Virus record (IMG/VR): IMGVR_UViG_2563366840_000011
Coordinates: 12,067-76,066 of that record
Reading direction: 5' to 3' (one strand)
Length of the DNA: 64,000 bases
Source of the DNA: a virus
Taxonomy: Duplodnaviria; Heunggongvirae; Uroviricota; Caudoviricetes
The notes beneath the pieces were generated by a model, which ran no database searches, was not told where the DNA came from, and worked only from the letters and a program-made list of their open reading frames with translations. The translations under genes were made by a program, and so were the position numbers. Within the stretch, counting starts at the first letter, position 1. Every line of letters begins with the position of its first letter. Below are positions 37,279 to 64,000 of this stretch, piece after piece.

Positions 37279-37293
37279 AAGTAAGTCATTACA

Positions 37294-38707: not shown

Positions 38708-38708
38708 A

Positions 38709-40820: not shown

Positions 40821-40821
40821 T

Positions 40822-41521: not shown

Positions 41522-41545
41522 CAGGCTGTTAAGGGCAAATTAATC

Positions 41546-43195: not shown

Positions 43196-43197
43196 TA

Positions 43198-46882: not shown

Positions 46883-46918
46883 TGAACCTCCCCGCAGTGG
46901 TGCCGTATCGTCGGCACC

Positions 46919-48034: not shown

Positions 48035-48045
48035 AGGAGAGCGAA

Positions 48046-48438
48046 ATGGATCGTCATACCCCTTATCGCGACGGCCAGCTGTTTGCCGTCCCGGTTGCGG
48101 CAGCCACTGAACTCTTTGGCGGCCACATTATTGCGGCCAACGCAGCGGGTTTTGCTGTACCAGGCAGCGCCACTGCAGCCAATACCACCCTCGGCATCTG
48201 TGATGGCTGGGTGGATAACTCTGCAGGTGCAGCCGGTGATGCAAGCGTGCTGGTTCGCCGTGGTAAAGCCTGGTTCCTGGCCAACAGCACTGCTGACGCG
48301 GTCACGCAGACGCAGATTGGCAAAGATTGCTACGTGGTGGACAGCCAGACAGTGGCTAAAACCAGTGATACCAACGCCCGCCCGGTCGCCGGAAAAGTGC
48401 TGGGTCTTGAGAATGATGGCGTCTGGGTTCTGATTTAA
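48046..48438 (+). CDS. Hypothetical head-region protein
   Basis: 130-aa ORF after ATG preceded by GGAGAG; Ala/Gly-rich; between protease and major capsid genes. Confidence 0.5.
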   Translation: MDRHTPYRDGQLFAVPVAAATELFGGHIIAANAAGFAVPGSATAANTTLGICDGWVDNSAGAAGDASVLVRRGKAWFLANSTADAVTQTQIGKDCYVVDSQTVAKTSDTNARPVAGKVLGLENDGVWVLI

Positions 48439-48451
48439 TAAGGAGAGAACC

Positions 48452-49360
48452 GTGTTAATTAACGTAAAAAATGTGCGTCAGATTTTCATTAATCTGAAAG
48501 CGACCTTCCAGAACGCCTTTGATCAGACACCGTCCGACTGGCAGAAGATTGCGATGGTGGTACCGTCGACCGGGAAAGAGAACGACTACAGCTGGCTGAG
48601 CCGTTTCCCGAAAATGCGTGAGTGGATTGGCGACAAGGTTATTAAAGCGTTCGCCGCGTTCAACTACACCATTCGCAATAAAGACTGGGAAGCGACGGTT
48701 GAAGTTGAGCGTAACGATATCGAAGACGATCAGATTATGGGCTATGCCCTGCAGGCTAAAGGTGCGGGCCAGTCCGCTGCCGAACTGCCAGCCGATATCG
48801 TCTTTGCACTCCTGAACAACGGCTTCACCAACCTTTGCTACGATGGTCAGCCCTTCTTTGATACCGACCACCTTTCCGGTGGCAAGTCGGTCTCTAACAA
48901 AGGCACGAAAAAGCTTGCCGTCACCTCGCTTGCCGCAGCAAAAGCAAGTTACGGCGCTGCACGAACCGCCATGCGCAGCCTGAAGGATGATGAAGGCGCA
49001 TCCCTGAAAATTCGCCCGACCATCCTGGTTGTACCTCCGGCTCTTGAAGATGATGCCAACTACCTGATGACGGCTGACCGCTTCCCGGACAATACGCCAA
49101 ACCCTTACAAGGGGACGGCTGAGGTTATGGTTGTCCCTGAGCTGACGTCTGATACCGCCTGGTTCCTTCTGGATAACACCAAACCCGTGAAGCCCCTGAT
49201 TTACCAGGAGCGTAAGAAACCAGTCTTTGTTGAGCAGACCGACTACAACTCTGACAACGTGATGATGCGTAAGAAGTTTCTCTTCGGTGCTGAAGCACGT
49301 GCAAACGGTGGCTACGGCTTCTGGCAGATGGCGTATGGCTCTACCGGGGAGGACGCATAA
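48452..49360 (+). CDS. Major capsid protein (Mu T-like)
   Basis: GTG start after AGGAG; 302-aa ORF MLINVKNVRQIFINLKATFQNAFDQTPSDWQKIAMVVPSTGKENDYSWLSRFPKMREW... Confidence 0.85.
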   Translation: MLINVKNVRQIFINLKATFQNAFDQTPSDWQKIAMVVPSTGKENDYSWLSRFPKMREWIGDKVIKAFAAFNYTIRNKDWEATVEVERNDIEDDQIMGYALQAKGAGQSAAELPADIVFALLNNGFTNLCYDGQPFFDTDHLSGGKSVSNKGTKKLAVTSLAAAKASYGAARTAMRSLKDDEGASLKIRPTILVVPPALEDDANYLMTADRFPDNTPNPYKGTAEVMVVPELTSDTAWFLLDNTKPVKPLIYQERKKPVFVEQTDYNSDNVMMRKKFLFGAEARANGGYGFWQMAYGSTGEDA

Positions 49361-49767
49361 TGCCGATTCAAATCACTGCCCGCCGTAACGGTTTTCGCCG
49401 TCTCGGCATCGCCCACAGCGCGAATACTGTCACCTGGCCGGATGACCAGTTCAGCGACAGCGAACTCCAGATTCTGGAAAACGATCCCAATCTGATTGTG
49501 GTCCGCCTGCAGGATGTGCCTGAAATCTCAGGAGGTGATGATGCTGTTTCCGCCCTGATCGCTGAGCGTGACGGCCTTAAGGTACGCATCAGCGAACTGG
49601 AGGCGACGGTTCTGCAGCTCAATCAGGATGGTGATGCACTTAAGCAGCAGCTAACCAGTGCAAACAGCACCATCGCAGAACTGGAAACTGAACGCAATGC
49701 ACTGCGTCAGGAGCTGGATTCGCTGAAGGCCGGTTCGCAAACCCCGGACAAAAAGGCGAAGGGGTAA
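49360..49767 (+). CDS. Hypothetical head-region protein (coiled-coil C-terminus)
   Basis: 135-aa ORF MPIQITARRNGFRRLGIAHSANTVTWPDDQF... with heptad-like C-terminal segment. Confidence 0.5.
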   Translation: MPIQITARRNGFRRLGIAHSANTVTWPDDQFSDSELQILENDPNLIVVRLQDVPEISGGDDAVSALIAERDGLKVRISELEATVLQLNQDGDALKQQLTSANSTIAELETERNALRQELDSLKAGSQTPDKKAKG

Positions 49768-49770
49768 GCC

Positions 49771-50199
49771 ATGTACGCGAACCGTGAGGACATGGTCAGG
49801 GCGTTTGGTGAGCGTGAGTGCGTGTCGCTCACCGACCGCAGCTATACCGGGCAGATTGACGATGATGTGCTGAACGGCGCACTCATTCAGGCCAGCGCTG
49901 AAATCGACGGTTATCTCTGCGGTCGCTATCCGGTGCCCTGGGCTGATGAGCCCCGTGTTCTCGTCGGTCGCTGCTGCAACATCGCCCGCTACCTTCTGTG
50001 CGGCTCTGAGACCCAGATGACAGATGAAATCCGCGAGCGGTATGAAGACACCGTTCGTTACCTGGAAAAAGTTGCATCCGGGCGAATCAATCTGGGCCGC
50101 ACGACGACGGGGGACGTGGTGAAAAGCGGAACCGGTGCGCGGATGGTGTCTGGTGGTCGCGTCTTCGGGCGTGACCAGACTGGCGGAGGAAGTTTCTGA
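49771..50199 (+). CDS. Mu gp36-like head-tail connector protein
   Basis: 142-aa ORF MYANREDMVRAFGERECVSLTDRSYTGQIDDDVLNGALIQASAEIDGYLCGRYPVPW... Confidence 0.65.
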   Translation: MYANREDMVRAFGERECVSLTDRSYTGQIDDDVLNGALIQASAEIDGYLCGRYPVPWADEPRVLVGRCCNIARYLLCGSETQMTDEIRERYEDTVRYLEKVASGRINLGRTTTGDVVKSGTGARMVSGGRVFGRDQTGGGSF

Positions 50200-50858
50200 T
50201 GGTGATTACGGATATCGAAAAAGCCATCGTGGAGCGCCTTCGTAAAGGTATGGGGCGTATGGTGAAGAACGTGCGCTCCTACGGCGGCGAGCTGGACGGC
50301 GAACCTGCGGAGGTGCTGCGCCAGCTCCCTTCGGTCTGGGTGACCTTCGGCGGGGTACAAAAAACCGAGCCGTACAGCACAGCCCGGCAACGGTTTGTCA
50401 CCCACGGTCGCTTTGTCGTGGTGGTTGGCGAGCGCAGCCTGCGCAGTGAAGAAGCGGCCCGAATGGGGGGGCCGCATGTGCAGGAGGTGGGGACGTATAT
50501 TCTGGTCGCCGCCGTTCGTCGTCTGCTGTCGGGTCAGGATATGGCCGATACGGGTATCAAAATCGACCCGCTCAGCCCTGGTCGCGTGCGCACGCTCTTC
50601 AACACCCAGATAGAGTCTCAGGCATTTTCCGTTTTTGCCTGTGAGTTCGACACAAAGTGGATTGAGTCGGCGCTGGAGAACGGGCGTTACCCGCTCACGG
50701 CTGCGCCGGAAGACCATGCTGACCATATGTTCCGGATTTATGGCGGTGCCACTACCGACGATGACCCGGCATGGCTGAGAACCCGACTCAGTTACGATCT
50801 TAAGCAGCCTGATAAAGACAATGCAGCAGAGGACATTATCAGTCATGAGCAAAATTAA
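50199..50858 (+). CDS. Mu gp37-like protein
   Basis: 219-aa ORF MVITDIEKAIVERLRKGMGRMVKNVRSYGGELDGEPAEVLRQLPSVWVTFGG... Confidence 0.65.
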   Translation: MVITDIEKAIVERLRKGMGRMVKNVRSYGGELDGEPAEVLRQLPSVWVTFGGVQKTEPYSTARQRFVTHGRFVVVVGERSLRSEEAARMGGPHVQEVGTYILVAAVRRLLSGQDMADTGIKIDPLSPGRVRTLFNTQIESQAFSVFACEFDTKWIESALENGRYPLTAAPEDHADHMFRIYGGATTDDDPAWLRTRLSYDLKQPDKDNAAEDIISHEQN

Positions 50859-51066
50859 AGTAAAAGCCGCCAGAGGGTTGAGCGTGCCGCGCGAAGATAA
50901 TGCGCGCCGCTACATTACTGATGCGGAACCAATTGAGGTGGAGAACACCGCTTATTACCAGCGTCAGGTAATGGCCGGTGATCTGATTATTGTTACCAGC
51001 AGTGACAAGAACACCAAAAGCAAAAGCAGCGAGCCCAGCGCGGAGGTGAACGGTGAGCAGTCCTAA
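50845..51066 (+). CDS. Mu gp38-like small protein
   Basis: ATG at 50845: MSKIKVKAARGLSVPREDNARRYITDAEPIEVENTAYYQRQVMAGDLIIVTSSDKNTKSKSS... Confidence 0.55.
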   Translation: MSKIKVKAARGLSVPREDNARRYITDAEPIEVENTAYYQRQVMAGDLIIVTSSDKNTKSKSSEPSAEVNGEQS

Positions 51067-52471
51067 TATCAGCTTTGACACTATCGGTACGAACCGCAAG
51101 CCGGGTCAGTATATTGAGTTCAACACCCGCCTGGCCGTTCGTACCCTGCCAGGTAACACCCAGAAGGTGCTGATGATTGCGCCAATGCTGGCCTCCGGTT
51201 TGTCTGCACCGCTTGTCATTCAGTCTGTTTTCTCTGATGAAGAAGCTGCGACGTACTTTGGCCGTGGCTCGCTGGCGCATCTGATGGCCACAGCGGCCAT
51301 CGGTGCCTACCCCTATCTGCAGCTGCAGATCGTCGGGGTCAGCGATGCGGCCACTGCAACAGCCGCGACGGGCAAAATCGCCCTGACCGGCACAGCATCT
51401 TCCGGCGGGAAGCTGAGCGTGACCATTAATGGTACCCGTATTGATGTCGGTATTTCGGCAGCAGATACGGCGGAGACCATTGCGGCAGCGCTGACGGAAC
51501 TGATTACCCAGAAAGACGGGTTGCCAGTGACGGCAACAGCAAACGCGGGGGAAGTGACCCTGACCTGCCGCCATAAAGGGGCGGTTGGTAACGACATTAT
51601 TGTCTCTTCCGGCGTAACGGCAGCGGGTATCACAGCGGCGACCACCACGCTTGCAGGCGGCAATGTTGATCCGGATATTACGCCAGCGCTGGCAGCGGCG
51701 TTCTCAGCAGGTCATAACATTGTTGTTTGTCCGTTCTCCACCCAGGAGGCGATGACGGCGCTGCGTAACCATCTGACAAACGTCAGCAATGCGATGGAAC
51801 AGCGCGGCGCAATCGGTGTGGGTGGGTGGCGCAAGTCGCTTTCCACCGGCATTGCACTGGCAGCTTCACTTAATGACGGACGTATCACGCTGGGCTGGCA
51901 TAGCGGTTCGGTAAAAACACCGGCGCAGATCGCCGCTGCCTATGCTGCTGTTATCGCCAGTGAAGAGGACCCGGCACGCCCGCTGAACACCCTTGCGATG
52001 AGCACGCTGGACGTGACTGCAGTAGAGAGTCAGCCAGGGCGAACTGAGCAGGAGAACGCCCTGCGGAATGGTCTTACGCCGTTTGAGATTGGCCCCGGTG
52101 ACAAAGTGCAAATCGTTCGCGCGATCAGCACCTACACCAAAAACGCCCAGGGCGTGGATGATGTGGCGCTGCTGGATATCACCACCATCCGAACGCTGGA
52201 CTATGTGCGCAAGGCCTGCCGTGAACGCATCGCTCTGCGATTCCCGCGCGACAAGCTCAGCTCAAGAACACCTCCGAAGGTGCGCAGTGAACTGCTTGAT
52301 GTGCTTTACAAGCTGGAGGAGCTGGAGATTGTCGAGGAGGTGGATGCCAACAAAAACGGACTTATTGTAGAGCGCGATCTGCAGGATGTTAACCAGCTGA
52401 ACGGTCGCATCCCTGCGGATGTTGTGAATGGCCTGCACGTCTTTGCCGGTCGAATTGATTTGCTGCTCTGA
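51053..52471 (+). CDS. Tail sheath protein (Mu L-like)
   Basis: GTG start after GGAGG; 472-aa ORF MSSPNISFDTIGTNRKPGQYIEFNTRLAVRTLPGNTQKVLMIAPMLASG... Confidence 0.85.
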   Translation: MSSPNISFDTIGTNRKPGQYIEFNTRLAVRTLPGNTQKVLMIAPMLASGLSAPLVIQSVFSDEEAATYFGRGSLAHLMATAAIGAYPYLQLQIVGVSDAATATAATGKIALTGTASSGGKLSVTINGTRIDVGISAADTAETIAAALTELITQKDGLPVTATANAGEVTLTCRHKGAVGNDIIVSSGVTAAGITAATTTLAGGNVDPDITPALAAAFSAGHNIVVCPFSTQEAMTALRNHLTNVSNAMEQRGAIGVGGWRKSLSTGIALAASLNDGRITLGWHSGSVKTPAQIAAAYAAVIASEEDPARPLNTLAMSTLDVTAVESQPGRTEQENALRNGLTPFEIGPGDKVQIVRAISTYTKNAQGVDDVALLDITTIRTLDYVRKACRERIALRFPRDKLSSRTPPKVRSELLDVLYKLEELEIVEEVDANKNGLIVERDLQDVNQLNGRIPADVVNGLHVFAGRIDLLL

Positions 52472-52484
52472 GGAGTAAACCATA

Positions 52485-52859
52485 ATGGCCCTTGAAGAAT
52501 ATGTTGGCGCGATCGTCATGGAAGTCGACGGCCAGGAAATTGAAGTGACTGACCTCAAGGAAGATGTGACCACTGGACGCAAGCTGGTTAAGACGATGAA
52601 CAAAACGGGACGTGCCAAAGGTTTTTCCCGTGGCATCGAAGAGATCCAGCTGACCGTTACGGTAGTTATCCCGGAATCCGGCGACCTGAACTGGGGCGGT
52701 ATTGAAGGTGCGAAAATCACCCAGTATCCACTTAACAGCAGCGGTAAACGTGTTTCTTACCTGGACTGTTTCAGCACTCAGGTCGGGGCTCAGTATACCG
52801 TCGACAACGAAGCGAAGCGCGATATCACCATGAATGCGCTTCGTCGGGTGGAGGAATAA
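52485..52859 (+). CDS. Tail tube protein (Mu M-like)
   Basis: 124-aa ORF MALEEYVGAIVMEVDGQEIEVTDLKEDVTTGRKLVKTMNKTGRAKGFSRGIEEIQ... Confidence 0.8.
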   Translation: MALEEYVGAIVMEVDGQEIEVTDLKEDVTTGRKLVKTMNKTGRAKGFSRGIEEIQLTVTVVIPESGDLNWGGIEGAKITQYPLNSSGKRVSYLDCFSTQVGAQYTVDNEAKRDITMNALRRVEE

Positions 52860-53252
52860 ATGGAAAAGCAGCAACTTTTATATGGCGTTAAATGCGGTGA
52901 TAAAGTCCATTTTGACTTTGCCGTCAGGCTGCCTGTGGTGAGCGATACCATTGAAGCGCTGCGGGCAACCGATGAAGCCTGCGGCACTACCGAAGGCGCA
53001 GCCGCAAACATGTATTACCGTGTTGCGGTAATGGCGTGTGCGATTACTGCCCTCGGAGATGTGCCAAAGGAAGAAATCACGGCGGAGCTGCTCCTTAACG
53101 AGCTGAATGATGATGATTTCGATCTCATCGATGCTCAGATTGAAGCCATTAAAAAAAAGCGGATGGATTTGAACAAAAGCTCACCGGCTACCGAACCCTC
53201 GTCCTCGCCCTCGGACGATACGGGATCAGTGAACAACAAATCGGAAGCATGA
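52860..53252 (+). CDS. Tail assembly chaperone (short, in-frame product)
   Basis: 130-aa ORF immediately upstream of the tape measure gene; acidic C-terminal region. Confidence 0.7.
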   Translation: MEKQQLLYGVKCGDKVHFDFAVRLPVVSDTIEALRATDEACGTTEGAAANMYYRVAVMACAITALGDVPKEEITAELLLNELNDDDFDLIDAQIEAIKKKRMDLNKSSPATEPSSSPSDDTGSVNNKSEA

Positions 53253-53386
53253 CCCGAACGGAACTCGACGGCTACACCGAAGCGCTTGCCCGGTTACATG
53301 GAAAGAAAACCGGGCAAACCACCACCCGCACAACCCGCACTGTCAAATCGCAACGCCGGAAGAAAGTCGGCAAACGGAGATAGTCC
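52860..53386 (+). CDS. Tail assembly chaperone, predicted -1 frameshift extended product
   Basis: The -1 frame is open from the A AAA AAG heptamer (53153-53159) to TAG at 53384-53386, adding ...ADGFEQKLTGYRTLVLALGRYGISEQQIGSMTRTELDGYTEALARLHGKKTGQ... and ending 1 nt before the tape measure start. Confidence 0.6.
53153..53159 (+). promoter_or_regulatory. Candidate -1 ribosomal frameshift slippery heptamer A AAA AAG
   Basis: In-frame codons AAA AAG (K K) within an 8-A run inside the chaperone gene; the -1 frame has no stop for 227 nt. Confidence 0.6.
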
Positions 53387-55528
53387 ATGGCGCGTAACTT
53401 ACAACTGGCGCTGCAGCTGCTTGCCCGTGATACCGGCTCCAAAGTGCTTAAACAGGCACTGCAGGGCATCAGCCGGGATACCAAAGCGGCGCAAAAAACC
53501 GATGATGAGCTGGCGAAATCCCGTCAGCAGAACTCGACCACAGCGATTCGTGCCTCCCGTTCTCTGATTGAGGAATACCGTCGCGCCAGTTCGGCGCGAG
53601 CAACTCTTGGCATTCGCTCAGAGCGCGAAATACAGCGCGAAATACAGCAGACCATGGCGGCCTATAATCGCCTTACCCGCACAGGTATGCTGTCCGCAAA
53701 TGAGCAGAACCGGGCTTTCAGGGCCATGACTGACAGGGTCAAAGCGCTGCGAACTGAGCTTGGCGGCGTCAATGACTCAATGACGCGCATGCAGCGATTC
53801 CGTGCTGCAGGTTCAACCGTGGCAGCAGTAGCCGGTGGGTTAACTGCTGCGGGTATGATTATAAAAGACCCGGTTCAGCGTCAGATGGCTTACGAACGGC
53901 GTAATGCTGAGATTGCAAATACCGCTTATAACAATCTCTCCGCACCAGACCGTATTAAGAAAATACCTGAGATCAATAATGCAATCCGTGGGGCTGTACG
54001 TTATGGCGGTGGAACGCCAGAGGCCGCACAGGAAACCATTAATTCACTTTTCGCAGGTGGTCTTGATGATAAAACGGCATTAAAAATATTGCCTAATATT
54101 ACTCGTTACGCTACTGCTTCAGGCGCAAATCCGAATGACCTTGCGCGTATTGCTATTGGTGCAATTAAGAACTTTGATATAAAGGCTGAGGATTTACCAG
54201 CGGTATTTGATAAAACCATCAGGTCTGGTGAGAACGGTAAATATGAACTCGCTGATATGGCTGGCTCATTACCATTAACCATGACAAAAGCAAACTCTGT
54301 AGGTATGTCAGGGTTAAAAGATTTGGATGTCATTCTCGCGATGTTACAGGCTAACGCTGAAACAGCAGGTGATAATAGCGCTGCATCAACAAACGTTAAT
54401 AACTTGCTTGATAAATACACCAGTGCTGACACTCAGAATGCGTTAAAAAATAAAAGATTCAGGACTAAAGACGGGAGGATGCTTGCCTATGCTGATTATA
54501 TGGCTGACCAGCGACTTTCAGGAGTGAATACTTCTGATGCATTCACTAATGCTGTATCAGGTATTGTTTCAGCAGACCCACGAGTTAAGAAATTACGGGC
54601 TCAGGCTACCAAATTCAAAGGGACGGACAAGGAGAAAGACATTCTTGCCTCACTGGATATTATTGTTTCCTCCATTACGTCAAAAATAGTTGCTGACCAG
54701 CAGGCCAGTACTGCACTAAAAACAAGCATAATGAAAAAAGACTTCATTAAGGAGCAAATTTCAGGAACACGTGATTCTGTCGGTGCTGGTGCAGCCTCAT
54801 ATGAGGTTATGTCGTCAACAAATGATTTTAAGTCACAACAATTTGAGTCAGAGAAAATGTTTTCTGAACAGGACGCAATGAAACCTGTTGCCGATTTATA
54901 CGGTGATTTGACGTCAAAACTCACCGATTACGCTAAAGAATATCCTGAGCTAACCACGGCTATTTCTGGTGCCACTACTGGCATTAAAGCCATGACAGCG
55001 GCTGCGGTAGCTTTTGCCGGGCTCAACTTTCTGACGGGCGGTGGAATAAAAATGCCAGGCTCTCCTGGAGGTGGAGTGCCACCTGCAGGAGGATCTGCTC
55101 TGGGGCGTGCATGGTCCGTTATTCGTGGCGGAGCTGGCAAGATATTAGCTCCACTGGCTCTTTATCAGGGTATGCAGGATGCCCCACTCGTTCACGTTGA
55201 GCGAGGTGATTCAAATGCACGTTCGCGCCTTAAGGTTGACAATTATTCAAGTCAATCAGAGCGAATGTTGGATGCTGTTAAAGCCCGCCCAGGATTGCTG
55301 GATGCCGTGGATGAGATCAAATCATGGTGGAGTTCTCCGGCCACAGTGGGGCAAAACACACCAGCCACAACAGGCGTACCGTCTTATCTGTTGCCTCAGC
55401 AGCAACAAAAGCCTCAGCCAGTAAACATCACAACTAAAGTCATGCTCGATGAGCGTCAGATTGCCGAGGCCGTCAATCAGTATAATGGCGATCAATCCGT
55501 TCGCGGCTCAACAGGAGGTCCACAGTGA
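53387..55528 (+). CDS. Tail tape measure protein
   Basis: 713-aa ORF after the chaperone genes; central region more AT-rich; C-terminus Gly-rich. Confidence 0.85.
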   Translation: MARNLQLALQLLARDTGSKVLKQALQGISRDTKAAQKTDDELAKSRQQNSTTAIRASRSLIEEYRRASSARATLGIRSEREIQREIQQTMAAYNRLTRTGMLSANEQNRAFRAMTDRVKALRTELGGVNDSMTRMQRFRAAGSTVAAVAGGLTAAGMIIKDPVQRQMAYERRNAEIANTAYNNLSAPDRIKKIPEINNAIRGAVRYGGGTPEAAQETINSLFAGGLDDKTALKILPNITRYATASGANPNDLARIAIGAIKNFDIKAEDLPAVFDKTIRSGENGKYELADMAGSLPLTMTKANSVGMSGLKDLDVILAMLQANAETAGDNSAASTNVNNLLDKYTSADTQNALKNKRFRTKDGRMLAYADYMADQRLSGVNTSDAFTNAVSGIVSADPRVKKLRAQATKFKGTDKEKDILASLDIIVSSITSKIVADQQASTALKTSIMKKDFIKEQISGTRDSVGAGAASYEVMSSTNDFKSQQFESEKMFSEQDAMKPVADLYGDLTSKLTDYAKEYPELTTAISGATTGIKAMTAAAVAFAGLNFLTGGGIKMPGSPGGGVPPAGGSALGRAWSVIRGGAGKILAPLALYQGMQDAPLVHVERGDSNARSRLKVDNYSSQSERMLDAVKARPGLLDAVDEIKSWWSSPATVGQNTPATTGVPSYLLPQQQQKPQPVNITTKVMLDERQIAEAVNQYNGDQSVRGSTGGPQ

Positions 55529-56856
55529 GCTGGGAAGATTCATTACAGGATGCCTCATTCAGGGGCGTCCGCTTCGATGTGGTTAATACCCGTGACAGCG
55601 CCAGCCGCGACATTGCGACGTATGAGTATCCCTATGTCGACGGTGGTGATGTTGATGACCTTGGCCGCAAGCCTCGTAACCTGAGAATGACGGTCCTTTT
55701 CTGGGGTGACGATTACGATGTGCGACTCCAGGCGTTTCTGGCCGCGCTGGATACACGCGGCAGCGCGGAGTTAATACACCCGGTTTTCGGCTCCATGACG
55801 GGCATGCAGTGCATTGAGTATCAGGCATCGCATGAAGCGGAGAACGTTGATTACTGCGTTGTCGAAGTGGTCTTTATCCAGGGGGGACTTAATCTGCCTT
55901 TCTTTGGCAGCGACTTCCCGCTGTCGAAAGCCGATATCATTTTCAACCAGGCGCAATCCGCTCTGGAGAAAGCCCAGACAGCCATCGACAATATTCTCTC
56001 GCCTCTGCGTACAGCGAAAAAGTGGATGAAGAAAGCGAAATCGCTGGCAACAACGACGCTGAATATGGTGACCATGCTTAAGGGGGAACTGACAGGATTT
56101 GTCAGTACCACCTCGGATTTTGTTAATTATCCGAAAGCGTTCATGAATGATCTGCAGAGTGCGCTGAGCCTGACGTCGCTTCAGTCCAAATCAAGTGTCA
56201 GTAATAACCCAGGAAGCTATTCACAGTCCTCAGACGTTTCCGGTACAGCGGGCATCGTGATGGCCGACTGGAAGAATGGCCGTAACAATCTGCAGGAGGT
56301 GGCCGCATTACCTCAGCAAATCGTGACCGGGCAAAAGACGGTTGCTGTTGCTGTTCCGGCAGGCTCATCAACCTCGGATATTACTGAGGTGGTAACGGCG
56401 GTAAAAATCCAGGTTGCAATCCAGCTGGCGCTTGATGCTTCCGACATACTCAGTGACAGCAGCATCAGCGATATTCTGTCTCCAGTCGATATTGAGCAGA
56501 TCACCAACGATACCAGGACGGCCATTCAGACGGCAATCGACCAGACGCGGGACACCTTTGCTGCCGATACGCAAAACGTGAGCGCCGGTGAAACACCGGC
56601 TGGCGTGACATGGCAACCCGTGGTTGAAAGCCTCAAGGATATCGCCCTGACCGTTCAGGAGCTGGGCGCAGCGGTTATTACCAGCAGACCGCCACTGACG
56701 ACGCGAGTGATATTGGCCGACACCAACCTGCATTTGCTGGCCCATCTGTGGTACGAGGACTACACCCGCGCCACCGAGTTGTTGCGTCTCAATCCGACAC
56801 TACGTAATCCTAACAACATCAAAGCCGGTGACGTTCTGAATGCCTACTCAAGATAA
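55525..56856 (+). CDS. DNA circularisation protein (Mu N-like)
   Basis: GTG start after AGGAGG; 443-aa ORF MSWEDSLQDASFRGVRFDVVNTRDSASRDIATYEYPYVDGGDVDDLGRKPRNLRMTVLFWG... Confidence 0.8.
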   Translation: MSWEDSLQDASFRGVRFDVVNTRDSASRDIATYEYPYVDGGDVDDLGRKPRNLRMTVLFWGDDYDVRLQAFLAALDTRGSAELIHPVFGSMTGMQCIEYQASHEAENVDYCVVEVVFIQGGLNLPFFGSDFPLSKADIIFNQAQSALEKAQTAIDNILSPLRTAKKWMKKAKSLATTTLNMVTMLKGELTGFVSTTSDFVNYPKAFMNDLQSALSLTSLQSKSSVSNNPGSYSQSSDVSGTAGIVMADWKNGRNNLQEVAALPQQIVTGQKTVAVAVPAGSSTSDITEVVTAVKIQVAIQLALDASDILSDSSISDILSPVDIEQITNDTRTAIQTAIDQTRDTFAADTQNVSAGETPAGVTWQPVVESLKDIALTVQELGAAVITSRPPLTTRVILADTNLHLLAHLWYEDYTRATELLRLNPTLRNPNNIKAGDVLNAYSR

Positions 56857-58057
56857 AGATTCGCAGAATACAGTGAGCCTGGTTATTGATGGCAAAATCC
56901 ACAGTGCATGGAGCCGCTATCAGATTGACTCCGATTTTCTTATCCCCTCCGATGCCTGGAGTGTAACGCTTGGGCTGCCTGATGGTATTTTCCCTCCGGC
57001 CATTAAACGTGGTGTGCCGGTGCTGGTCAGGGTGGGTAATGATGTTGTCATGTCCGGTCGGGTGGATGTGGTTCAGCGCCGGGTATCCCGTCAGCAGGTT
57101 TCTTTATCTCTTTCCGGTCGCGATGGTGCAGCCGTGCTTGTTGACTGCGCTTCACCCGTTTTTACCTCCCGCCAGCTCAGTCTTGAAGAGGTGATCGCCC
57201 AGGTTGTCAGACCGCTGGGGATAACGAACATCCGCATCGAGGCTGAATCATCCCTGCGTAATGACAAGGTCAGCGTGGAGCCCGGAGAACGTGCGTGGGA
57301 TACCCTTGAGCGTGCAGCTGCTGCACGCGGGTTATGGCCATGGTTTGAGCCAGATGGCACGCTGGTAATTGGAGGGCCGGATTACACAAAAGACCCTGTA
57401 GCCACGCTTGTTCTGAATCGTGACGGTCGGGGAAATAATGTCCTCGATCTCAGTGACCGGTCATCCATTACCGGTGCGTTCTCTGAACTGACAATGCTGG
57501 CACAGGGACACGGCCAGGGGAAAAAGTCAGGAAGACTGGAAGTTATTGACGTTGATGATCAGAGCGCTGAGGCTGAAGACGATGATGATGCCGACGCAAT
57601 TTATGACAGCACCGGCTCTGCAGAGAATGGCTTTCATGGCTTACGTAGTACCGTTCGCGACAGTACCGTACCTTTCTATCGTCCGCAGATTATGGTTGCT
57701 GGTGATGCTGATAATCAGGCGCAGGTTGATTATCGCGCGAGAAAGGCCATGGCTGACGCCCGTCTGAACGGGTTTGATCTGACAGTAATTGTTAAAGGCC
57801 ATCGCATGGAGAACGGTCAGTTATGGCAACCGGGCCAGCGTATTCGTGTCCGAAGCGAGCCGCATGGCATTGATGACATTTACTTCCTCATGGGAAGAGA
57901 GTTTTCAGGTGGTCGTCCAGACAACACCATTACCACCCTGCGGCTCAAAGAGGATGGAATATGGATACCGGATGCTTATCCGAAAAAACGCAAATCACGT
58001 AAGCGTCGCGCCAAAGTAAATAAAGAGCTGGAGATTATCGATGTGGAACAAAATTGA
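56840..58057 (+). CDS. Tail/baseplate hub protein (Mu P-like)
   Basis: 405-aa ORF MPTQDKDSQNTVSLVIDGKIHSAWSRYQIDSDFLIPSDAWSVTLGLPDG... Confidence 0.8.
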   Translation: MPTQDKDSQNTVSLVIDGKIHSAWSRYQIDSDFLIPSDAWSVTLGLPDGIFPPAIKRGVPVLVRVGNDVVMSGRVDVVQRRVSRQQVSLSLSGRDGAAVLVDCASPVFTSRQLSLEEVIAQVVRPLGITNIRIEAESSLRNDKVSVEPGERAWDTLERAAAARGLWPWFEPDGTLVIGGPDYTKDPVATLVLNRDGRGNNVLDLSDRSSITGAFSELTMLAQGHGQGKKSGRLEVIDVDDQSAEAEDDDDADAIYDSTGSAENGFHGLRSTVRDSTVPFYRPQIMVAGDADNQAQVDYRARKAMADARLNGFDLTVIVKGHRMENGQLWQPGQRIRVRSEPHGIDDIYFLMGREFSGGRPDNTITTLRLKEDGIWIPDAYPKKRKSRKRRAKVNKELEIIDVEQN

Positions 58058-58646
58058 CTCTCGTATTAACACGGCGTTAAACCGTATCAGAAAGGCCTTC
58101 AGGGGCGTTTTAATAAGGGTTAACAGCGGCGGTGATATTCAGACCATTCAGGGTAAAGGTCTGGCCACTGAGTCTCTGCAGGATGTGGAGATGTTTCAGC
58201 AGTACGGTTTTACATCCAACCCGCCCAGGGGGACTAAAGCCATTGTGCTCCCGCTTAACGGGCGCACCAGTCATAGCGTGGTGATTGCCACGGAACACGC
58301 TGCATACAGGCTAAAGAGCCTGAAAAGTGGTGAGCTTGCCATTTATTCGGATGAAGGAAGCAACATTATTCTGAAGCGCGGAAAAATAATTGAAGTAAAC
58401 TGCGATGAATATATAGTTAATACTAAAAAGCACACGGTGAATACCGAACAACATATTGTTAATACCAAAACGTATAAAACCACAGCCTCAGAGCGGGCAG
58501 ATTTTGATACACCATTGCTGAAAGGCAGTAATGAAGTCGCTGACGGCAAGTCTACGCTGAACACCATGCGTGAGACTTATGACGGTCACGACCACGACCA
58601 CGGCGGTGATGCAGGCACAACGCAGAAACCTAATCAGCAAATGTAA
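58041..58646 (+). CDS. Baseplate spike/assembly protein (Mu gp45-like) with short tandem peptide repeats
   Basis: 201-aa ORF; repeats YIVNTKKHTVNTEQHIVNTKTY; His/Asp-rich C-terminus GHDHDHGGD. Confidence 0.7.
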   Translation: MWNKIDSRINTALNRIRKAFRGVLIRVNSGGDIQTIQGKGLATESLQDVEMFQQYGFTSNPPRGTKAIVLPLNGRTSHSVVIATEHAAYRLKSLKSGELAIYSDEGSNIILKRGKIIEVNCDEYIVNTKKHTVNTEQHIVNTKTYKTTASERADFDTPLLKGSNEVADGKSTLNTMRETYDGHDHDHGGDAGTTQKPNQQM

Positions 58647-58682
58647 TTTGTGGTAACGTAAGTTCTCCTTCAAAAGCAATAC

Positions 58683-58700
58683 CCACTGAACCCCTTCACC
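58683..58700 (+). promoter_or_regulatory. Conserved late box, copy 3 (upstream of gp46-like baseplate gene), candidate late promoter/activator site
   Basis: CCACTGAACCCCTTCACC, immediately followed by GATAAT, then 10-bp perfect inverted repeat TTCCATGCCG/CGGCATGGAA (58713-58741) containing the first ATG. Confidence 0.55.
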
Positions 58701-58735
58701 GATAATTTAAATTTCCATGCCGGTAGTATTACGGC

Positions 58736-59086
58736 ATGGAAATGTTGATTGATCCAACGACCGGCGATTATACCGGCGACAGCTCAGACTCTTTAGCGAA
58801 TGCCGTCTACTTACGGCTGATGACGCCCCTTGGCTCATGGTGGGCTGATCCAACTCTGGGCTCTCTTTTGCATACACTCCGCCGCGAAAAGGATGTGTCT
58901 CGCGTTCAACAACTCGCGGTGCAGTATTCGCGGCAGGCCCTGCAACCGATTATTGACGACGGTCGCGCCCAGTCCATTTCCGTTACTGCAGAGCACTGGC
59001 AAAAAGGCTGGATGCTGCTTCATATCACCGTCACGTCTGCGAGCGGAACGCCGCAGACCTGGAAATATCCGGTTAAGGTCAGCTGA
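58736..59086 (+). CDS. Baseplate protein (Mu gp46-like)
   Basis: 116-aa ORF MEMLIDPTTGDYTGDSSDSLANAVYLRLMTPLGSWWADPTLGSLLHTL...; translation may start at the second ATG (58742). Confidence 0.7.
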   Translation: MEMLIDPTTGDYTGDSSDSLANAVYLRLMTPLGSWWADPTLGSLLHTLRREKDVSRVQQLAVQYSRQALQPIIDDGRAQSISVTAEHWQKGWMLLHITVTSASGTPQTWKYPVKVS

Positions 59087-60153
59087 TGCCATTCATTACC
59101 AAAAATGCCGCGCAAATACGCACTGACATTCTGCGGGATATCAAAAATCTCCTGCAGTTGTCAGATGATACGCTGGGCCCGGACAGCGACTGGTACATCC
59201 GGGCATCGAGTGTAGCCAGTGTTGCCGAGGGGCTTTATCAGCATCAGGGATGGATAGTCCGTCAGATCTTTCCGGATACTGCTGATTCGGAATTCCTCTA
59301 TCTGCACGCCCGTTTACGTGGTTTAAGCAAAAAAGCAGCCAATAGCGCCTCCGGGCCTGCCACGTTTACCGGCGAACCAGGAGCGGTGGCCGCTGCCGGT
59401 CTTGTGTTCAAACGCGACAGTGTTTCGTGGACAACAACCGAAGATATTATTGTCGGGTCAGATGGAAAATCATCGGTAAACGCAGTGTCTTCTCTGGCCG
59501 GAACCACTGGTAACACCACTTCCGTCACATCGGCCACACTGACCACAACACCTGATGGGTTTGACAGCACAGTGACAGTAGGCCTGATGACTGGCGGAAC
59601 AGATGAGGAAACGGATGCAGAGCTGCTTGCTCGTCTGCTTGAAATCATCCGCCGACCTCCTGCAGGCGGCAATAAATATGATTACAAACGCTGGGCGCTT
59701 GAGGTATCAGGCGTATCCGCCGCATATGTTTACCCTTTGCGGCGGGGGCCGGGTACCGTTGATGTTGTGATCACGTCTGCAGGTGGGCTGCCATCTCAGG
59801 ATGTGATCGACAGGGTGCAGGCTCACATTGACGATGTCCGGCCTGTTACAGCAAAAAACACGCTGGTGCTCATGCCTGTCATCCGTACATTTGACGTCCT
59901 CGTGAAGGTATCACTGGAGGGCATCACCCTCGCAGCAGCCAAACAGGCTGTCGCCGGAACGCTGGAGGACGATGACTCGCGCCGAGAGCCTGGAGTGGCT
60001 TTTATTCGCAGCCAGGCGGGGACATTGATTTCTCTAATTCCGGGTATTACCGACTATGACATCGTTACACCATCGGCAAATATTCAACCGATAATCGATG
60101 CCACGAAAGTCGAATGGCTCAGATTAGGAAACGTTGAGGTAGAGCTGCTATGA
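59086..60153 (+). CDS. Baseplate J-like protein (Mu gp47-like)
   Basis: 355-aa ORF MPFITKNAAQIRTDILRDIKNLLQLSDDTLGPDSDWYIRASSVASVAEGLYQHQGW... Confidence 0.8.
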   Translation: MPFITKNAAQIRTDILRDIKNLLQLSDDTLGPDSDWYIRASSVASVAEGLYQHQGWIVRQIFPDTADSEFLYLHARLRGLSKKAANSASGPATFTGEPGAVAAAGLVFKRDSVSWTTTEDIIVGSDGKSSVNAVSSLAGTTGNTTSVTSATLTTTPDGFDSTVTVGLMTGGTDEETDAELLARLLEIIRRPPAGGNKYDYKRWALEVSGVSAAYVYPLRRGPGTVDVVITSAGGLPSQDVIDRVQAHIDDVRPVTAKNTLVLMPVIRTFDVLVKVSLEGITLAAAKQAVAGTLEDDDSRREPGVAFIRSQAGTLISLIPGITDYDIVTPSANIQPIIDATKVEWLRLGNVEVELL

Positions 60154-60722
60154 GCTACTTCACGCTGTTAAATCGTCTGCTGCCACTTGTTTCGTACAGC
60201 CCGGGCCAGCCTCTGCTTGATGCATCATTGCGATCTGAATCAGGTGTTTTTGAGACTCTCGATGCGTCTGCAGGGCTTGTTGAAGGTGGAGTTACTCCAT
60301 TTTATGCACGCAGCCTTTTGTATGACTGGGAACGCGTCCTGGACCTTACTCCTGCTGAAGGTGCGACATACCAGCAACGCCAGCAGCGTGTACTGGCTAA
60401 ACTGGCTGAAGTCGGTGGTCTCAGTATTCCGTACTTTACTCAGTTGGCAAGCAACCTTGGCTACATCATCACAATTGATGAACCGCAACCTTTCAGGGCG
60501 GGAGTTGGCCGCGCCGGTGATCGCCTCTGGGTTGAAGACATTATCTGGGTCTGGCGCGTCAATATTCAGAACTCAGGAACTCAATCCTATCGCTTTCGCT
60601 CAGGCAGTTCAGCTGCAGGTGAGCGCCTGACAACGTTTGGTGATCCGATTATTGAAGACGTCTTCCGTGATCTCAAACCAGCCCATACATTTTGCTACTT
60701 CGCATATCAGGAGAATGAATAA
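60150..60722 (+). CDS. Tail/baseplate protein (Mu gp48-like)
   Basis: 190-aa [69 protein letters not shown]... Confidence 0.75.
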
Positions 60723-61366
60723 TGCGGCCCTTAATGCCACCGGTGCAGACGCCGGATAATCTTTTCCATGATGGTAATCCGCTCACAGGTGAGCTGGGGA
60801 CCATTGTTGATGCTGAGCATCTGAATAACGTGCAGGGAGCTGTCAGAGATGCGCAGTCGGAGCTTATTACTGTCCTGAACGCTGCCGGTATTAATGTTGA
60901 TCCTTCTAAACAAAACCAGTTATTAACAGCATTAAAAGCGCTGTTACTGAGTCGCTCAAATCCGTTTGGCGATATCAAATCGGATGGCACCGTGAAAACG
61001 GCTCTCGAAAATCTTGGTTTGGGAGAAGCGGCTAAAAGGAATGTAGGGACAGGGGCGAATCAGATACCTGATATGGGTAGCTTCACGCTTTCTGTTTCAG
61101 ATACTGGATATCAAAAATTACCATCAGGTTTTATTCTTCAGTGGGGCTCAATCGGCGCTCCAGGCATTGCACAGGATGTAGTAACCCATTTCCCGATTGC
61201 ATTTCCAAACAGATGTCTGCGTGTTTTGGTCTCACAAGACTACACACCAGATAGCGGGGCTGTTGGTTATATTGCCTGTGCAGGTTTTAGTCCCGACCCG
61301 GTTAAATTTATATCCAGAGCCAGTACTCCTGGCCTCGGCGCTTCATTTTTAGCGTTAGGCTGTTAA
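60722..61366 (+). CDS. Tail fibre protein (constant N-terminus plus currently expressed variable part)
   Basis: 214-aa [44 protein letters not shown]...; followed by fibre assembly gene; an alternative fibre C-terminus is encoded inverted downstream. Confidence 0.8.
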
Positions 61367-61387
61367 TTTAGCTATATGGAGTGAAAA

Positions 61388-61828
61388 ATGAATTACATAT
61401 ATTCCGCGACTACAAACTCTTTCTATCCGCTGGAGATGAAAGAGGATTACACTCAAGCTGACTCATGGCCAGATGATGCTGTTGAAGTTGATGAGCAAGT
61501 GTATATTGAGTTTTCCGGATTACCGCCGAAAGGAAAAATCCGTATCGCTGGAGAAAATGGTTTTCCTGCATGGTCTGAAATTCCACCACCAACATATGAG
61601 GAACAGATTGCTGCAGCCGAACTGGAAAAGCAGCAACTGATTAATCAGGCCAACGAATACATGAACAGTAAGCAATGGCCCGGTAAAGCCGCTATTGGTC
61701 GTCTGAATGGTGAGGAACTGGCGCAATATAATTTGTGGCTGGATTATCTGGATGCACTGGAGCTGGTTGATACTTCCGGTGCGCCAGATATTGAATGGCC
61801 TACGCCTCCGGCAGTTCAGGCCAGATGA
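61388..61828 (+). CDS. Tail fibre assembly protein (Mu U-like)
   Basis: 146-aa ORF MNYIYSATTNSFYPLEMKEDYTQADSWPDDAVEVDEQVYIEFSGLPPKGK... Confidence 0.8.
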   Translation: MNYIYSATTNSFYPLEMKEDYTQADSWPDDAVEVDEQVYIEFSGLPPKGKIRIAGENGFPAWSEIPPPTYEEQIAAAELEKQQLINQANEYMNSKQWPGKAAIGRLNGEELAQYNLWLDYLDALELVDTSGAPDIEWPTPPAVQAR

Positions 61829-62411
61829 CATCCGGCGCGGTGCTGGTATCTGTTGCCGTCACCGCGTCAATGTAATCCAGCACAGCGTTAAGGCGGGTTG
61901 TTTCTGCCTGCGTCAGTTTACGTCCGGCCTGCAATTTCAGCTGAATCAGACTGATGGAGGCCATTGCAGTATCAATCAGCGACTGGCGCTGTGCTTCTGC
62001 TGCATCTACTGCTGCGCCGTGCTGTGCCTCGGTATCCGTCACCCATTTCTCACCATCCCATTTATCGTATGGGGTTAACGGGGCGATAGTGGTTGTATTA
62101 TCAGGGTAATCACCCGGAGCTGTGATTTCTTTTGATTCCCCTGTTTCGGTGCTAAAAACGATTTCACCGCGATGGTCTGGCATATATTCCCATGATTTTA
62201 AATCTGCTGAACGGCAGATAGTATAACCAGCCTTATATGTACCAGGAGCATCTAAACAGGAATACGCCGGAATACCGACGCCGACAGCGAGATATTCAGT
62301 TGATGTAGAAATATATTCCCGCGTTTCTCCGTTGTAGTTGTAAACGGTAATAAAGCCAGCTTCCGTGGCAAATCCGTTTTCATCCAAAGTGATTTTTTTT
62401 GTGGTCATCAT
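61800..62411 (-). CDS. Alternative tail fibre assembly protein (U'-like), inverted orientation
   Basis: 203-aa minus-strand ORF MMTTKKITLDENGFATEAGFITVYNYNGETREYISTSTEYLAVG...; convergent with the plus-strand assembly gene. Confidence 0.75.
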   Translation of the reverse strand: MMTTKKITLDENGFATEAGFITVYNYNGETREYISTSTEYLAVGVGIPAYSCLDAPGTYKAGYTICRSADLKSWEYMPDHRGEIVFSTETGESKEITAPGDYPDNTTTIAPLTPYDKWDGEKWVTDTEAQHGAAVDAAEAQRQSLIDTAMASISLIQLKLQAGRKLTQAETTRLNAVLDYIDAVTATDTSTAPDVIWPELPEA

Positions 62412-62956
62412 GATGCCCTTACAATGTAGTTAAATGCAATGTTACGTGGTCGGTTTTCTTCCGCAGTTGGTACAACTCTGGCGGCGGAAAAACCTACGTC
62501 ATACCTATTACCGGGCGATGAGGTTGTTTGACCAGCGCCGCCTTCGTATACAGCATTAAATGGCCCTGTTACCCACTCGTCTGCTGTCCTCTGGCTTCCC
62601 GCAGTGGTCATAAGTCCCAAGAGCTTCCCTGATATGTCCCTTATAGCATCACCTTGTGCGGACAGCAGCGCTCGCCCTGAATCGACCCCACGCCCGTCAT
62701 CCCAGCCACGAATAAACTCACCACGTAAATCTGGCAATTTATTTGTCGGATAAACTTTTGCCAGTTCCGGATACTCTTCGGCAGAAAAAGGTGCACCATT
62801 GCATTTCAGCCAGCCTGTTGGCGGAGTGGCTGAAGGCCACGGAACAGGCACGCCAACGGGTAATGCCGAACCTTCTCCCAAACCAACCTTTTGTGGATTG
62901 AGATTTTTAATGTCAGCGAAGCTCTTCGTCAAAAGTGAAACTCTGATAACCTGGTT
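62408..62956 (-). CDS. Alternative tail fibre variable C-terminal segment (Sv'-like) lacking its own start
   Basis: Minus-strand frame open from the stop at 62957-62959: NQVIRVSLLTKSFADIKNLNPQKVGLGEGSALPVGVPVPWPSATPPTGWLKCNGAPFSAEEYPELAKVYP...; no ATG or SD at its 5' end. Confidence 0.65.
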   Translation of the reverse strand, partial: NQVIRVSLLTKSFADIKNLNPQKVGLGEGSALPVGVPVPWPSATPPTGWLKCNGAPFSAEEYPELAKVYPTNKLPDLRGEFIRGWDDGRGVDSGRALLSAQGDAIRDISGKLLGLMTTAGSQRTADEWVTGPFNAVYEGGAGQTTSSPGNRYDVGFSAARVVPTAEENRPRNIAFNYIVRAS

Positions 62957-62993
62957 CTACTGACGAACAGAAGGATAAGCAGGAGATCGCTTT

Positions 62994-63554
62994 ATGATTA
63001 TTGGGTATGCACGAGTATCAAGTAACCATCAGGACACCGAGCTTCAGATGCAGGCGCTCAGAGCTGCTGGCTGTAAGTTAATTTTTGAGGAAAAGGCTTC
63101 TGGCCGTAAGACGAACCGACCAATTTTGAAGAAAGTGGTTGAGATGCTTGAACCCGGTGACGAGCTGGTCATCTGGAAGCTGGATCGTATCGGTCGCAAT
63201 GTGCTGCACGCATTATTGACGTTTCAGAGCCTCGCAGAACGCAATGTTAACATCCGTTCTATTACTGATGGCGTTGACCTGAGTACCGCCAGTGGGCGCT
63301 ATAACTTCCGTAATATTCTCTCTGCGGCACAATATGAGTCTGATCTGAATAGTGAACGCACTTTGGCGGGGTTAGCGGTTGCCCGCGCTAAGGGGAGGAT
63401 TGGCGGACGTAAGCCTAAGTTCACTAATGAGCACTGGGATGCGTTTGAACGGGAAATTAAGTCCGGCTGCTCACATCGTGATATAGCTCTCAAATATGGA
63501 GTCGGCCTGTCGACTCTCTACAAACGTTATCCGGCTCAGCAAGAGCATCAGTAA
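62994..63554 (+). CDS. gin: Serine DNA invertase (Gin/Pin/Hin family)
   Basis: 186-aa ORF MIIGYARVSSNHQDTELQMQALRAAGCKLIFEEKASGRKTNRPILKKVVEMLEPGDELVIWKLDRIGRN... resolvase-type catalytic domain plus C-terminal HTH; last gene before the right end. Confidence 0.9.
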   Translation: MIIGYARVSSNHQDTELQMQALRAAGCKLIFEEKASGRKTNRPILKKVVEMLEPGDELVIWKLDRIGRNVLHALLTFQSLAERNVNIRSITDGVDLSTASGRYNFRNILSAAQYESDLNSERTLAGLAVARAKGRIGGRKPKFTNEHWDAFEREIKSGCSHRDIALKYGVGLSTLYKRYPAQQEHQ

Positions 63555-63559
63555 ACACT

Positions 63560-63660
63560 CTTTGCGTTCATTTTTGCACTGTGCAGAATGTGTCTTTTTG
63601 GCACCTTCCGACAGTGCAAAATTTATCGCGTTTTTGTGCAAAAAAAATCGCCGCGCTACA
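63560..63660 (+). repeat. Mu-like right end with inverted copies of the terminal TTTTGCAC(T)G motif
   Basis: TTTTTGCACTGTGCAG, CAGTGCAAAAT and TTTTTGTGCAAAAAAAATCG within the last 100 bp; element ends ...CGCGCTACA. Confidence 0.6.
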
Positions 63661-64000
63661 CAGCGTGCACACCTAATACAGCCAGTGTCGTACAAACGTT
63701 CGGTTTACCTATAGAGCACGGATAGCAATGCCCACAGCTGACCACCGGATCGACAGCAACACGTTCACCGACTCTGGCGCTTTCCACGCCTTCACCCACT
63801 GCATCAATGACGCCAAAGAATTCATGACCAATGACGCGCGGATATTTCGCAAAAGGATTATGCCCACGATAAATATGGCTATCTGAACCACAAATTCCGG
63901 CAAGTTTCACTTTTACTCGTACTTCACCCGCTGACGGGGTGGGTATTTCACGTTCGACAATCGCCAGTTGATTCGGTTTTTCAATTAATATGCTTTTCAT
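63661..64000 (-). pseudogene. rspB: 5' fragment of rspB-like zinc-dependent alcohol dehydrogenase gene (codons 1 to ~113), interrupted by the Mu-like prophage
   Basis: Minus-strand ORF from ATG at 63998-64000: MKSILIEKPNQLAIVEREIPTPSAGEVRVKVKLAGICGSDSHIYRG...CSIGKPNVCTTLAVLGVHA, then V-stop from prophage-end sequence; frame continues at 29217 with DGGFSEYA... Confidence 0.8.

Follow-up and report, generated by a model that had tools for sequence, protein, structure and literature searches.

A Mu-like Escherichia coli prophage without recognisable com-mom, gam or second Mor/C genes and with a probable Kil-like gene

Which of the Mu functions Mom, Com, Gam, Kil and C are carried by a Mu-like prophage that closes at its right end with an invertase gene, and were the missing ones lost from this copy or lacking in its lineage? 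The question was raised by a 64,000-nucleotide stretch of DNA (referred to below as the window; positions 12,067 to 76,066 of the IMG/VR virus record IMGVR_UViG_2563366840_000011), in the right half of which a 34,439-bp Mu-like prophage was located at 29222..63660 by aligning both junctions with intact rspB. A first-pass annotation, done by eye, had reported neither mom/com-like genes nor obvious C, gam or kil homologues. According to the present analysis, the window carries an apparently intact transposable Mu-like prophage, and the best explanation overall is a Mu-like lineage without com-mom, Gam and a second Mor/C gene and with a two-tier late cascade; the two statements were jointly given a probability of about 0.85. 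When the five functions were checked by profile searches, the absence of four (Mom, Com, Gam and C) was upheld and Kil was found likely to be present.

The element was assigned to the Mu-type myovirus prophages because Mu proteins were detected in Mu order when all 54 of them were used as tblastn queries: Ner, A, B, portal gp29, gp30, G, I, T and gp36, and further the sheath L, N, P, gp45, gp47, gp48 and Gin. The assignment to the Mu-like phages was also based on Pfam matches to Mu-transpos_C, rve, HTH_Tnp_Mu_1, AAA_22 and TniB together with tblastn matches to Mu A and B, on genes for GemA and a Mor/C-family protein that close the early region, and on head and tail genes of Mu type. Identity to Mu was 23% for A and 50% for Gin (tblastn). 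The ends and the target-site repeats were placed as follows.

29218..29221: CAGC target-site repeat on the left, from the alignment with intact rspB.
29222..29400, plus strand: attL, the left end, which starts TG; three TTYTGCAC repeats resembling transposase sites lie at 29239, 29312 and 29363.
63555..63660, minus strand: attR, the 106-bp right end, which closes with CA and holds three repeats resembling transposase sites.
63661..63664: CAGC target-site repeat on the right, from the junction alignment.

The flanks of the prophage are matched at 99.6% identity by E. coli rspB (Zn-dependent oxidoreductase), and the intact-rspB alignment used for calling the junctions reads ...ACCGTCAGCGTGCAC.... 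The gene is split by the prophage into 28859-29221 and 63661-64000 and is thus inactivated in this strain. Since the fifth base differs between the two repeat copies, just 4 bp (CAGC) are duplicated unambiguously; the apparent target repeat is also 4 bp (CATC) in the prophage of E. coli FDAARGOS_1303, a separate insertion inside ydbL. The target duplication of Mu is 5 bp. TTYTGCAC is matched 10 times in the 64-kb window, and 7 of these matches lie in the two prophage ends: the three of the left end, all on the plus strand, and, at the right end, 63636-43, 63614-21 and 63581-88 on the minus strand and 63572 on the plus strand. The outermost site stands 17 bp from the terminus at either end, and the predicted transposase sites are in mirrored orientation. 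Their layout is likewise that of Mu, with L1 apart from L2 and L3 and with R1 to R3 clustered.

Two features border the right end.

61008..62892: invertible tail-fibre segment, with 21-nt inverted repeats at 61008-61028 and 62872-62892.
62994..63554, plus strand: Gin-type serine invertase, the last prophage gene (Pfam Resolvase 2.7e-37, HTH_7 8e-5).

The invertase was placed with Gin and Hin by a Resolvase catalytic domain followed by a C-terminal helix-turn-helix (HTH) and by its adjoining a segment bounded by inverted repeats, in which tail-fibre assembly genes are found on both strands (Caudo_TAP in two open reading frames, ORFs). It had been described as the last gene with about 105 bp remaining, and exactly 106 bp were measured between its stop codon and the terminus. 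No coding capacity of the phage's own was found in these 106 bp, where the crossing ORFs continue into host DNA and match nothing in Pfam. As the 106 bp are attR with its transposase-site repeats, there is no room for com (62 amino acids, aa) or mom (241 aa); in Mu, 115 bp separate the end of mom from the right terminus. The recombinase gene of the FDAARGOS_1303 prophage is likewise the last gene, about 110 bp from the host junction.

Pfam and PHROGs scans were performed with 20 likely early and lysis genes, and Pfam scans also covered 148 more ORFs, 30 aa or longer and from either strand, in 29.2-41.6 kb and 60.7-63.7 kb, as well as 106 ORFs of 45 aa or longer from the structural part (41.6-60.7 kb); each of the two whole-set scans (148 and 106 ORFs) comprises the 25 best families. 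The Mu proteins were used as positive controls and were recognised by Pfam at 4e-42 for Gam (PF07352), about 1e-33 for Mor and C (PF08765), 3e-9 for Com (PF10122) and 2e-75 for Mom (PF25680); Mu Gam, Mor, C, Com and Mom are also recognised by PHROGs. Mom (PF25680 or phrog_1384) was matched neither in the Pfam scans of prophage ORFs nor in the PHROGs scans nor by tblastn. Com, a zinc-ribbon translational activator (PF10122), had no Pfam match in the prophage ORFs scanned, among the 25 best families per whole-set scan, and the sole match in a scan for CxxC...CxxC was a 44-aa antisense ORF inside gene I rather than a Com-like ORF. With the 54 Mu proteins as tblastn queries, no match of Gam, C, Mor, Com or Mom had an E below 0.3. 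There is thus no candidate for Mom or Com, and on these searches and the short right end the claim that mom and com are missing was confirmed. In FluMu, Pnm1 and B3, Mom is absent, and Com and a DNA adenine methyltransferase in Mom's place are kept (PMC3299994); neither of the two was found in the prophage, where no DNA methyltransferase replacing Mom as in FluMu and B3 appeared among the Pfam matches.

Gam, a Ku-like inhibitor of host nucleases (PF07352, phrog_491 or phrog_2205), gave no match in the Pfam or PHROGs scans, and tblastn with the Gam proteins of Mu, DMS3 and RcapMu was negative, so the claim of no obvious gam held. The homologue search for Mu Gam returned, among the matches listed, only close relatives (at least 72% identity), and the resulting profile was shallow. 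As for a second Mor/C paralogue, Pfam Mor was matched by one ORF only (37767..38201) among the prophage ORFs scanned, in agreement with the earlier statement that C is absent and that a single Mor/C-family gene is present.

Kil is the function for which the earlier reading had to be revised.

33484..33762, plus strand: Kil-like protein of 92 aa, phrog_2041 (4e-17), identified by profile, family cross-match and position.

This ORF is the first gene after B, its start lying 21 bp past the B stop codon, and kil of Mu (4315-4539) likewise follows B. It was the second-best tblastn match of Mu Kil, at a weak E of 1.6 over Kil residues 15-73; in the PHROGs the best non-Kil family for Mu Kil was phrog_2041 (full length, E = 0.2), and the ORF in turn matched the Mu Kil family phrog_2743 over the full length at E 0.11. 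A HMMER search gave 44 relatives of the ORF. When the ORF and 37 relatives were scanned one by one (n = 38), phrog_2743 was matched by 10 of the 38 (best 3.9e-5), the second Kil family phrog_6381 by 7 and phrog_2679 by 1. In an hhalign comparison of the ORF family and the Mu Kil family, 68 of 75 columns were aligned, with a probability of 64% and E 6e-5. The homologue search for Mu Kil had yielded, among the matches listed, only close relatives (at least 79% identity) and hence a shallow profile. The motifs L-x-x-R-G...RP-[IV]-[IL]-x-I and GC-x-[IV]-[IV]-W are common to the ORF family and Mu Kil. The position is also conserved: a phrog_2041 gene is the first after B in Mannheimia phage vB_MhM_3927AP2 (3927AP2 below), and a gene of the neighbouring family phrog_2043 is the first after B in B3 and stands just upstream of Gam in DMS3. 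The AlphaFold2 model of the 92-aa protein had a predicted local distance difference test (pLDDT) value of 91.4, and only uncharacterised proteins, with no named Kil, were found with it in a BFVD fold search; the Kil homology therefore rests on profiles and synteny. On this evidence, the ORF is probably a distant homologue of Mu Kil, and the 92-aa protein would provide host killing or division inhibition. The claim that a kil homologue is missing is therefore probably wrong, given the hhalign result, the 10 of 38 cross-matches and the first-after-B position; the wording "no obvious" kil is defensible, the Kil-like ORF not being evident by eye.

A diverged carrier of this kind leads to a first alternative, namely that the missing functions are carried by diverged or non-homologous proteins, with a DUF3164 protein serving for Gam and a hypothetical early ORF serving as middle or late regulator. 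The first of these candidates occupies the slot held by Gam in other transposable phages.

33956..34606, plus strand: DUF3164 protein (Pfam DUF3164 3e-83).

The protein is 68% identical to BcepMu gp05 and 61% identical to the B3 and Ab30 proteins, and the domain is conserved at about 60-68% identity across transposable phages of Escherichia, Burkholderia and Pseudomonas. The exchange is seen between two Casadabanvirus genomes: Gam and DMS3-12 lie at 7077-7878 in DMS3, and DUF3164 lies at 7629-8246 in Ab30 between flanking genes 98% identical to those of DMS3, that is, in Gam's exact slot. In 10 reference genomes or genome parts, DUF3164 was found without Gam in 7 and Gam without DUF3164 in 3. 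The same was seen in IMG/VR, where none of 80 DUF3164-seeded loci contained Gam (both B and gemA present in 70 of 80) and none of 80 Gam-seeded loci contained DUF3164 (both B and gemA in 63 of 80); these 160 loci are the best 80 matches per query and are phylogenetically not independent. In no case, therefore, were the two found together. Both alternatives occur in each of four backbone classes of the B protein, always between B and gemA and on the strand of B. Of 47 transposable-phage genomes, 30 have been reported to carry Gam (PMC8705779), and DUF3164 without Gam occurs in two roseophages (PMC5488378). DUF3164 is thus a slot alternative to Gam.

DUF3164 and Gam have no detectable sequence similarity (hhalign probability 0.1%), and the structure model of the DUF3164 protein had no structural neighbour and matched neither the Ku nor the Gam fold. 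The Gam slot would then be filled in the prophage by an unrelated protein, and it is a tentative proposal that DUF3164, non-homologous to Gam, is its functional alternative. If this were true, Gam-less Mu-like phages would protect or process DNA ends by a new, non-Ku mechanism. The DUF3164/Gam alternation is a first functional lead for a widespread domain to which no function has been assigned. The wider alternative, in which a hypothetical early ORF would also supply the regulator, is favoured by the Kil case, by the exchange within 98%-identical flanks and by the mutual exclusion of DUF3164 and Gam, and was judged possible, with the odds clearly against it.

Late regulation was approached through the one Mor/C-family gene and a repeated box in the gaps between operons.

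37767..38201, plus strand: only Mor/C-family activator, 144 aa, C-terminus ...SQGKLF (Pfam Mor 1.7e-8, phrog_836 2.4e-39).
38709..38726, plus strand: putative late-promoter box 1, CCACTGAACCCCTTCACC, before the genes for endolysin and lysis.
46865..46882, plus strand: putative late-promoter box 2, CCACTGAACCTCTTCATC, before the gene for the head protease I homologue.
58683..58700, plus strand: putative late-promoter box 3, CCACTGAACCCCTTCACC, before the gene for a gp46-like baseplate protein.

The Mor match was above the 24.9-bit cut-off, the likely start being 37767 and the stop 38201. Like mor in Mu, the gene has an overlap with the end of gemA. In Mu, the middle promoter is activated by Mor and the middle operon ends with C, which activates Plys, PI, PP and Pmom through a TTAT-N5-6-ATAA site at promoters having a -10 and no -35 element (PMC12867686). 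The C-terminal motif of C binds the beta clamp and is needed for C-dependent late transcription, the clamp-binding motifs being an N-terminal Qx[DE][LM]F and/or a C-terminal QPDLF (PMC12867686). Mu C ends QPDLF and Mu Mor ends QPSLL. The prophage protein ends QGKLF (38184-38201), and no N-terminal Qx[DE][LM]F was seen in it. A Q-x-x-L-F end was found on all eight single Mor-family activators examined in other transposable phages, among them those of the FDAARGOS prophage, the Klebsiella phage ST405-OXA48phi1.1, 3927AP2, DMS3, B3, BcepMu and RcapMu; a C-type terminus of this kind has recently (2026) been tied to the sliding clamp. The lysis genes follow directly after an ORF for a 168-aa protein, and the predicted lysis promoter lies within about 500 bp of the Mor/C gene. 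From the C-type end and this short distance, the missing piece is taken to be the middle tier rather than the late activator. The 168-aa protein (38201-38707, phrog_29261) has an N-terminal signal-like hydrophobic segment and lies between the Mor-family gene and the first box; where the Mu middle operon is found, the prophage has this putatively exported protein.

The 18-mer CCACTGAACCYCTTCAYC was matched exactly 3 times in the 64-kb window against 0.09 expected, in all cases on the plus strand, and the matches are restricted to the gaps that precede the operons for lysis, head and baseplate. Each 18-bp box holds the dyad TGAA-N4-TTCA, the dyad centres being 38718, 46874 and 58692. The FDAARGOS_1303 prophage carries the box at these three positions too, and the Klebsiella phage carries, at three equivalent positions, a variant, CCACTGAAGCCCnTCAAY, with unchanged dyad arms and altered centre and flank; no copy of the box was seen in the 25 kb of 3927AP2 that were examined. 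Inverted repeats follow the boxes at 38757-38788, 46899-46921 and 58715-58740 (stems GCCATCC/GGATGGC, GGTGCCG/CGGCACC and CCATGCCG/CGGCATGG, respectively), and each of them borders or spans the start codon of the operon's first gene; in the Klebsiella relative, hairpins of different sequence occur there as well. For two of the boxes, only 36 nt separate the box from the start codon, which would mean leaderless or very short-leader mRNAs, or translational sequestration.

Late transcription in the prophage may accordingly be described as a putative two-tier cascade. The early operon (c/ner, A, B, the Kil-like gene, DUF3164 ... gemA, mor-like) would end with the single activator, and this C-like protein, encoded at the mor position, would act directly on three late promoters sharing CCACTGAACCYCTTCAYC. 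By position, the three predicted promoters would correspond to Plys, PI and PP of Mu, and the fourth Mu late promoter, Pmom, would be absent together with mom. The box is thereby a candidate operator for a Mor/C-family activator with a specificity unlike that of Mu C.

An alternative with a small probability is that the three boxes are not promoters, being terminator or RNA-processing elements or sites of another protein, with the late genes read through from the early promoter. The inverted repeats abutting or including the start codons downstream of each box would suit it, as would a consensus scan in which only weak sigma-70-like sites were found at the boxes. However, the C-dependent late promoters of Mu also have no -35 element (PMC12867686), -10-like hexamers (TAGTAT, TATCGT and AATACT) stand 23 nt past the box end, the dyad suits a dimeric HTH activator, and boxes occur only in the three inter-operon gaps.

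The relatives bear on whether the absences belong to the lineage. The nearest sequenced phage is the Klebsiella phage ST405-OXA48phi1.1, which has the same early gene set, with DUF3164 and GemA and, as in the prophage, no annotated Gam, Mom or Com; its record ends with an SGNH hydrolase tail gene, whereas the prophage has the invertible segment and gin instead. The FDAARGOS_1303 prophage is 94.6% identical in DNA over 36324-41598 of the window and has the same early layout, annotated by the Prokaryotic Genome Annotation Pipeline (PGAP) without Gam or C. An IMG/VR contig encodes a B protein 99.7% identical to that of the window. By megablast of the prophage against the phage collection, the terminase gene only was matched (about 72%), and among complete E. 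coli genomes none matches at least 80% of the early-region or right-end queries. The FDAARGOS_1303 early layout and terminal recombinase gene and the gene complement of the Klebsiella phage argue for a lineage trait rather than local decay; the lineage would never have carried the com-mom module, Gam or a second Mor/C paralogue.

The order common to Mu and the prophage is c, ner, A, B, a gene in the kil position ... gemA, mor, lysis, head, contractile tail, invertible fibre segment and gin, and the TG...CA ends and the homologous proteins from the portal to Gin named above are shared. Unlike Mu, the prophage is without Gam, C, Com and Mom and has a GH19 (glycoside hydrolase family 19) endolysin; its Mor, GemA, A and probable Kil are recognisable by profiles only; DUF3164, DUF2786/DUF7168 and DUF4406 genes lie in its early region; its box dyad is TGAA-N4-TTCA as against TTAT-N5-6-ATAA for Mu C, with three predicted late promoters as against four; and its apparent target repeat is 4 bp. 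The earlier statement that the late-regulation and DNA-modification complement differs from that of Mu was thus correct as to com-mom, a methyltransferase substitute, Gam and the presence of one activator instead of two, and needs correction in that a Kil-family gene is probably present and that the tier missing is the middle one.

Similar gene sets have been described. The early layout of 3927AP2 (A, B, phrog_2041 gene, small ORF, DUF3164, ANR ... gemA ... mor, lys) is as in the prophage, although its transposase is only about 41% identical. In 3927AP2, phiMhaMu2 and SuMu, lys lies directly after mor, and 3927AP2 is without the com-mom module (PMC4553209); from the lys position, C is lacking in all three. 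Haemophilus phage SuMu, unlike the prophage, carries Gam and Com (PMC3447690). Pseudomonas phage B3 resembles the prophage in having a single Mor homologue and DUF3164, with no Gam detected. Since the same architecture has been published (PMC4553209, PMC3299994, PMC8705779), the pattern of absences is known variation among Mu-like phages; the prophage belongs to an already described class, and its difference from Mu is ordinary. What is documented by it is a predicted Mor-only late cascade and the absence of Mom-type anti-restriction modification in an E. coli prophage, and the kil-like gene, the single late activator, the three predicted late promoters and the exact ends are useful for annotation.

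Several points weigh against the lineage explanation and its two-tier cascade. The weakest Pfam matches (E about 0.005-0.01) fall outside the 25 best families per whole-set scan, shorter ORFs lie outside the length limits of the profile scans (30 aa, and 45 aa in the structural region), and analogues diverged beyond recognition may exist despite the negative profile searches. The box abuts the start codons unusually closely, so a promoter fits only with very short leaders, and all functional statements, including activator-box binding and the start of transcription, are derived from sequence. The weakest alternative, a decayed Mu relative from which mom/com, gam and C were deleted after integration, would accord with the frequency of decay among prophages and with a 4-bp target repeat in place of the 5 bp typical of Mu, but was considered highly improbable, because both ends are intact with symmetric transposase-site-like repeats, tblastn showed no remnants of the missing genes, the independent FDAARGOS_1303 insertion has the same gene complement, the same recombinase-to-end distance and again a 4-bp repeat, and the deposited Klebsiella phage genome has the same gene complement.

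The other genes identified in the prophage were as follows.

29485..30054, minus strand: repressor, c-like HTH (Pfam HTH_3 and Phage_CI_repr; position).
30238..30465, plus strand: Ner homologue, 56% identical to Mu Ner (E 1e-23).
30467..32524, plus strand: transposase A (Pfam Mu-transpos_C 1.5e-15, rve, HTH_Tnp_Mu_1).
32570..33463, plus strand: transposition ATPase B (tblastn to Mu B E 2e-20; AAA_22, TniB).
37310..37822, plus strand: GemA homologue (Pfam GemA 2e-19).
38786..39430, plus strand: GH19 endolysin, first gene of the lysis cassette (Pfam Glyco_hydro_19, phrog_181).

The transposase is 68.5% identical to that of the Klebsiella phage. According to Pfam and PHROGs, DUF3164, an ANR-like protein, DUF2786/DUF7168, DUF4406 and GemA are encoded in the early region, and the GH19 endolysin, DUF2644, a spanin and DUF1804 after it. 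The ORFs at 34831-35022 and 37048-37278 are apparent paralogues, each matching phrog_5591 and phrog_19503. Between the Kil-like gene and DUF3164, a 63-aa ORF (33775-33966) has no Pfam or PHROG family and has a 47% identical counterpart in the FDAARGOS_1303 prophage; its identification with the "host nuclease inhibitor" gp06 of 3927AP2 (phrog_803), which is at the same position, was rejected as no similarity and no PHROG match were found. No Rfam match was obtained inside the prophage.

The remainder of the window (1-28800) is apparently occupied by another prophage, of lambdoid type. A high-GC block (57-59%) with large minus-strand ORFs extends over 1-14 kb and is followed by an AT-rich block, in which two cspA-type thermoregulator leaders (16248-16633 and 19144-19536), a lysozyme resembling Lys of Mu (17354-17854) and a sok antitoxin RNA (26382-26553) were found.
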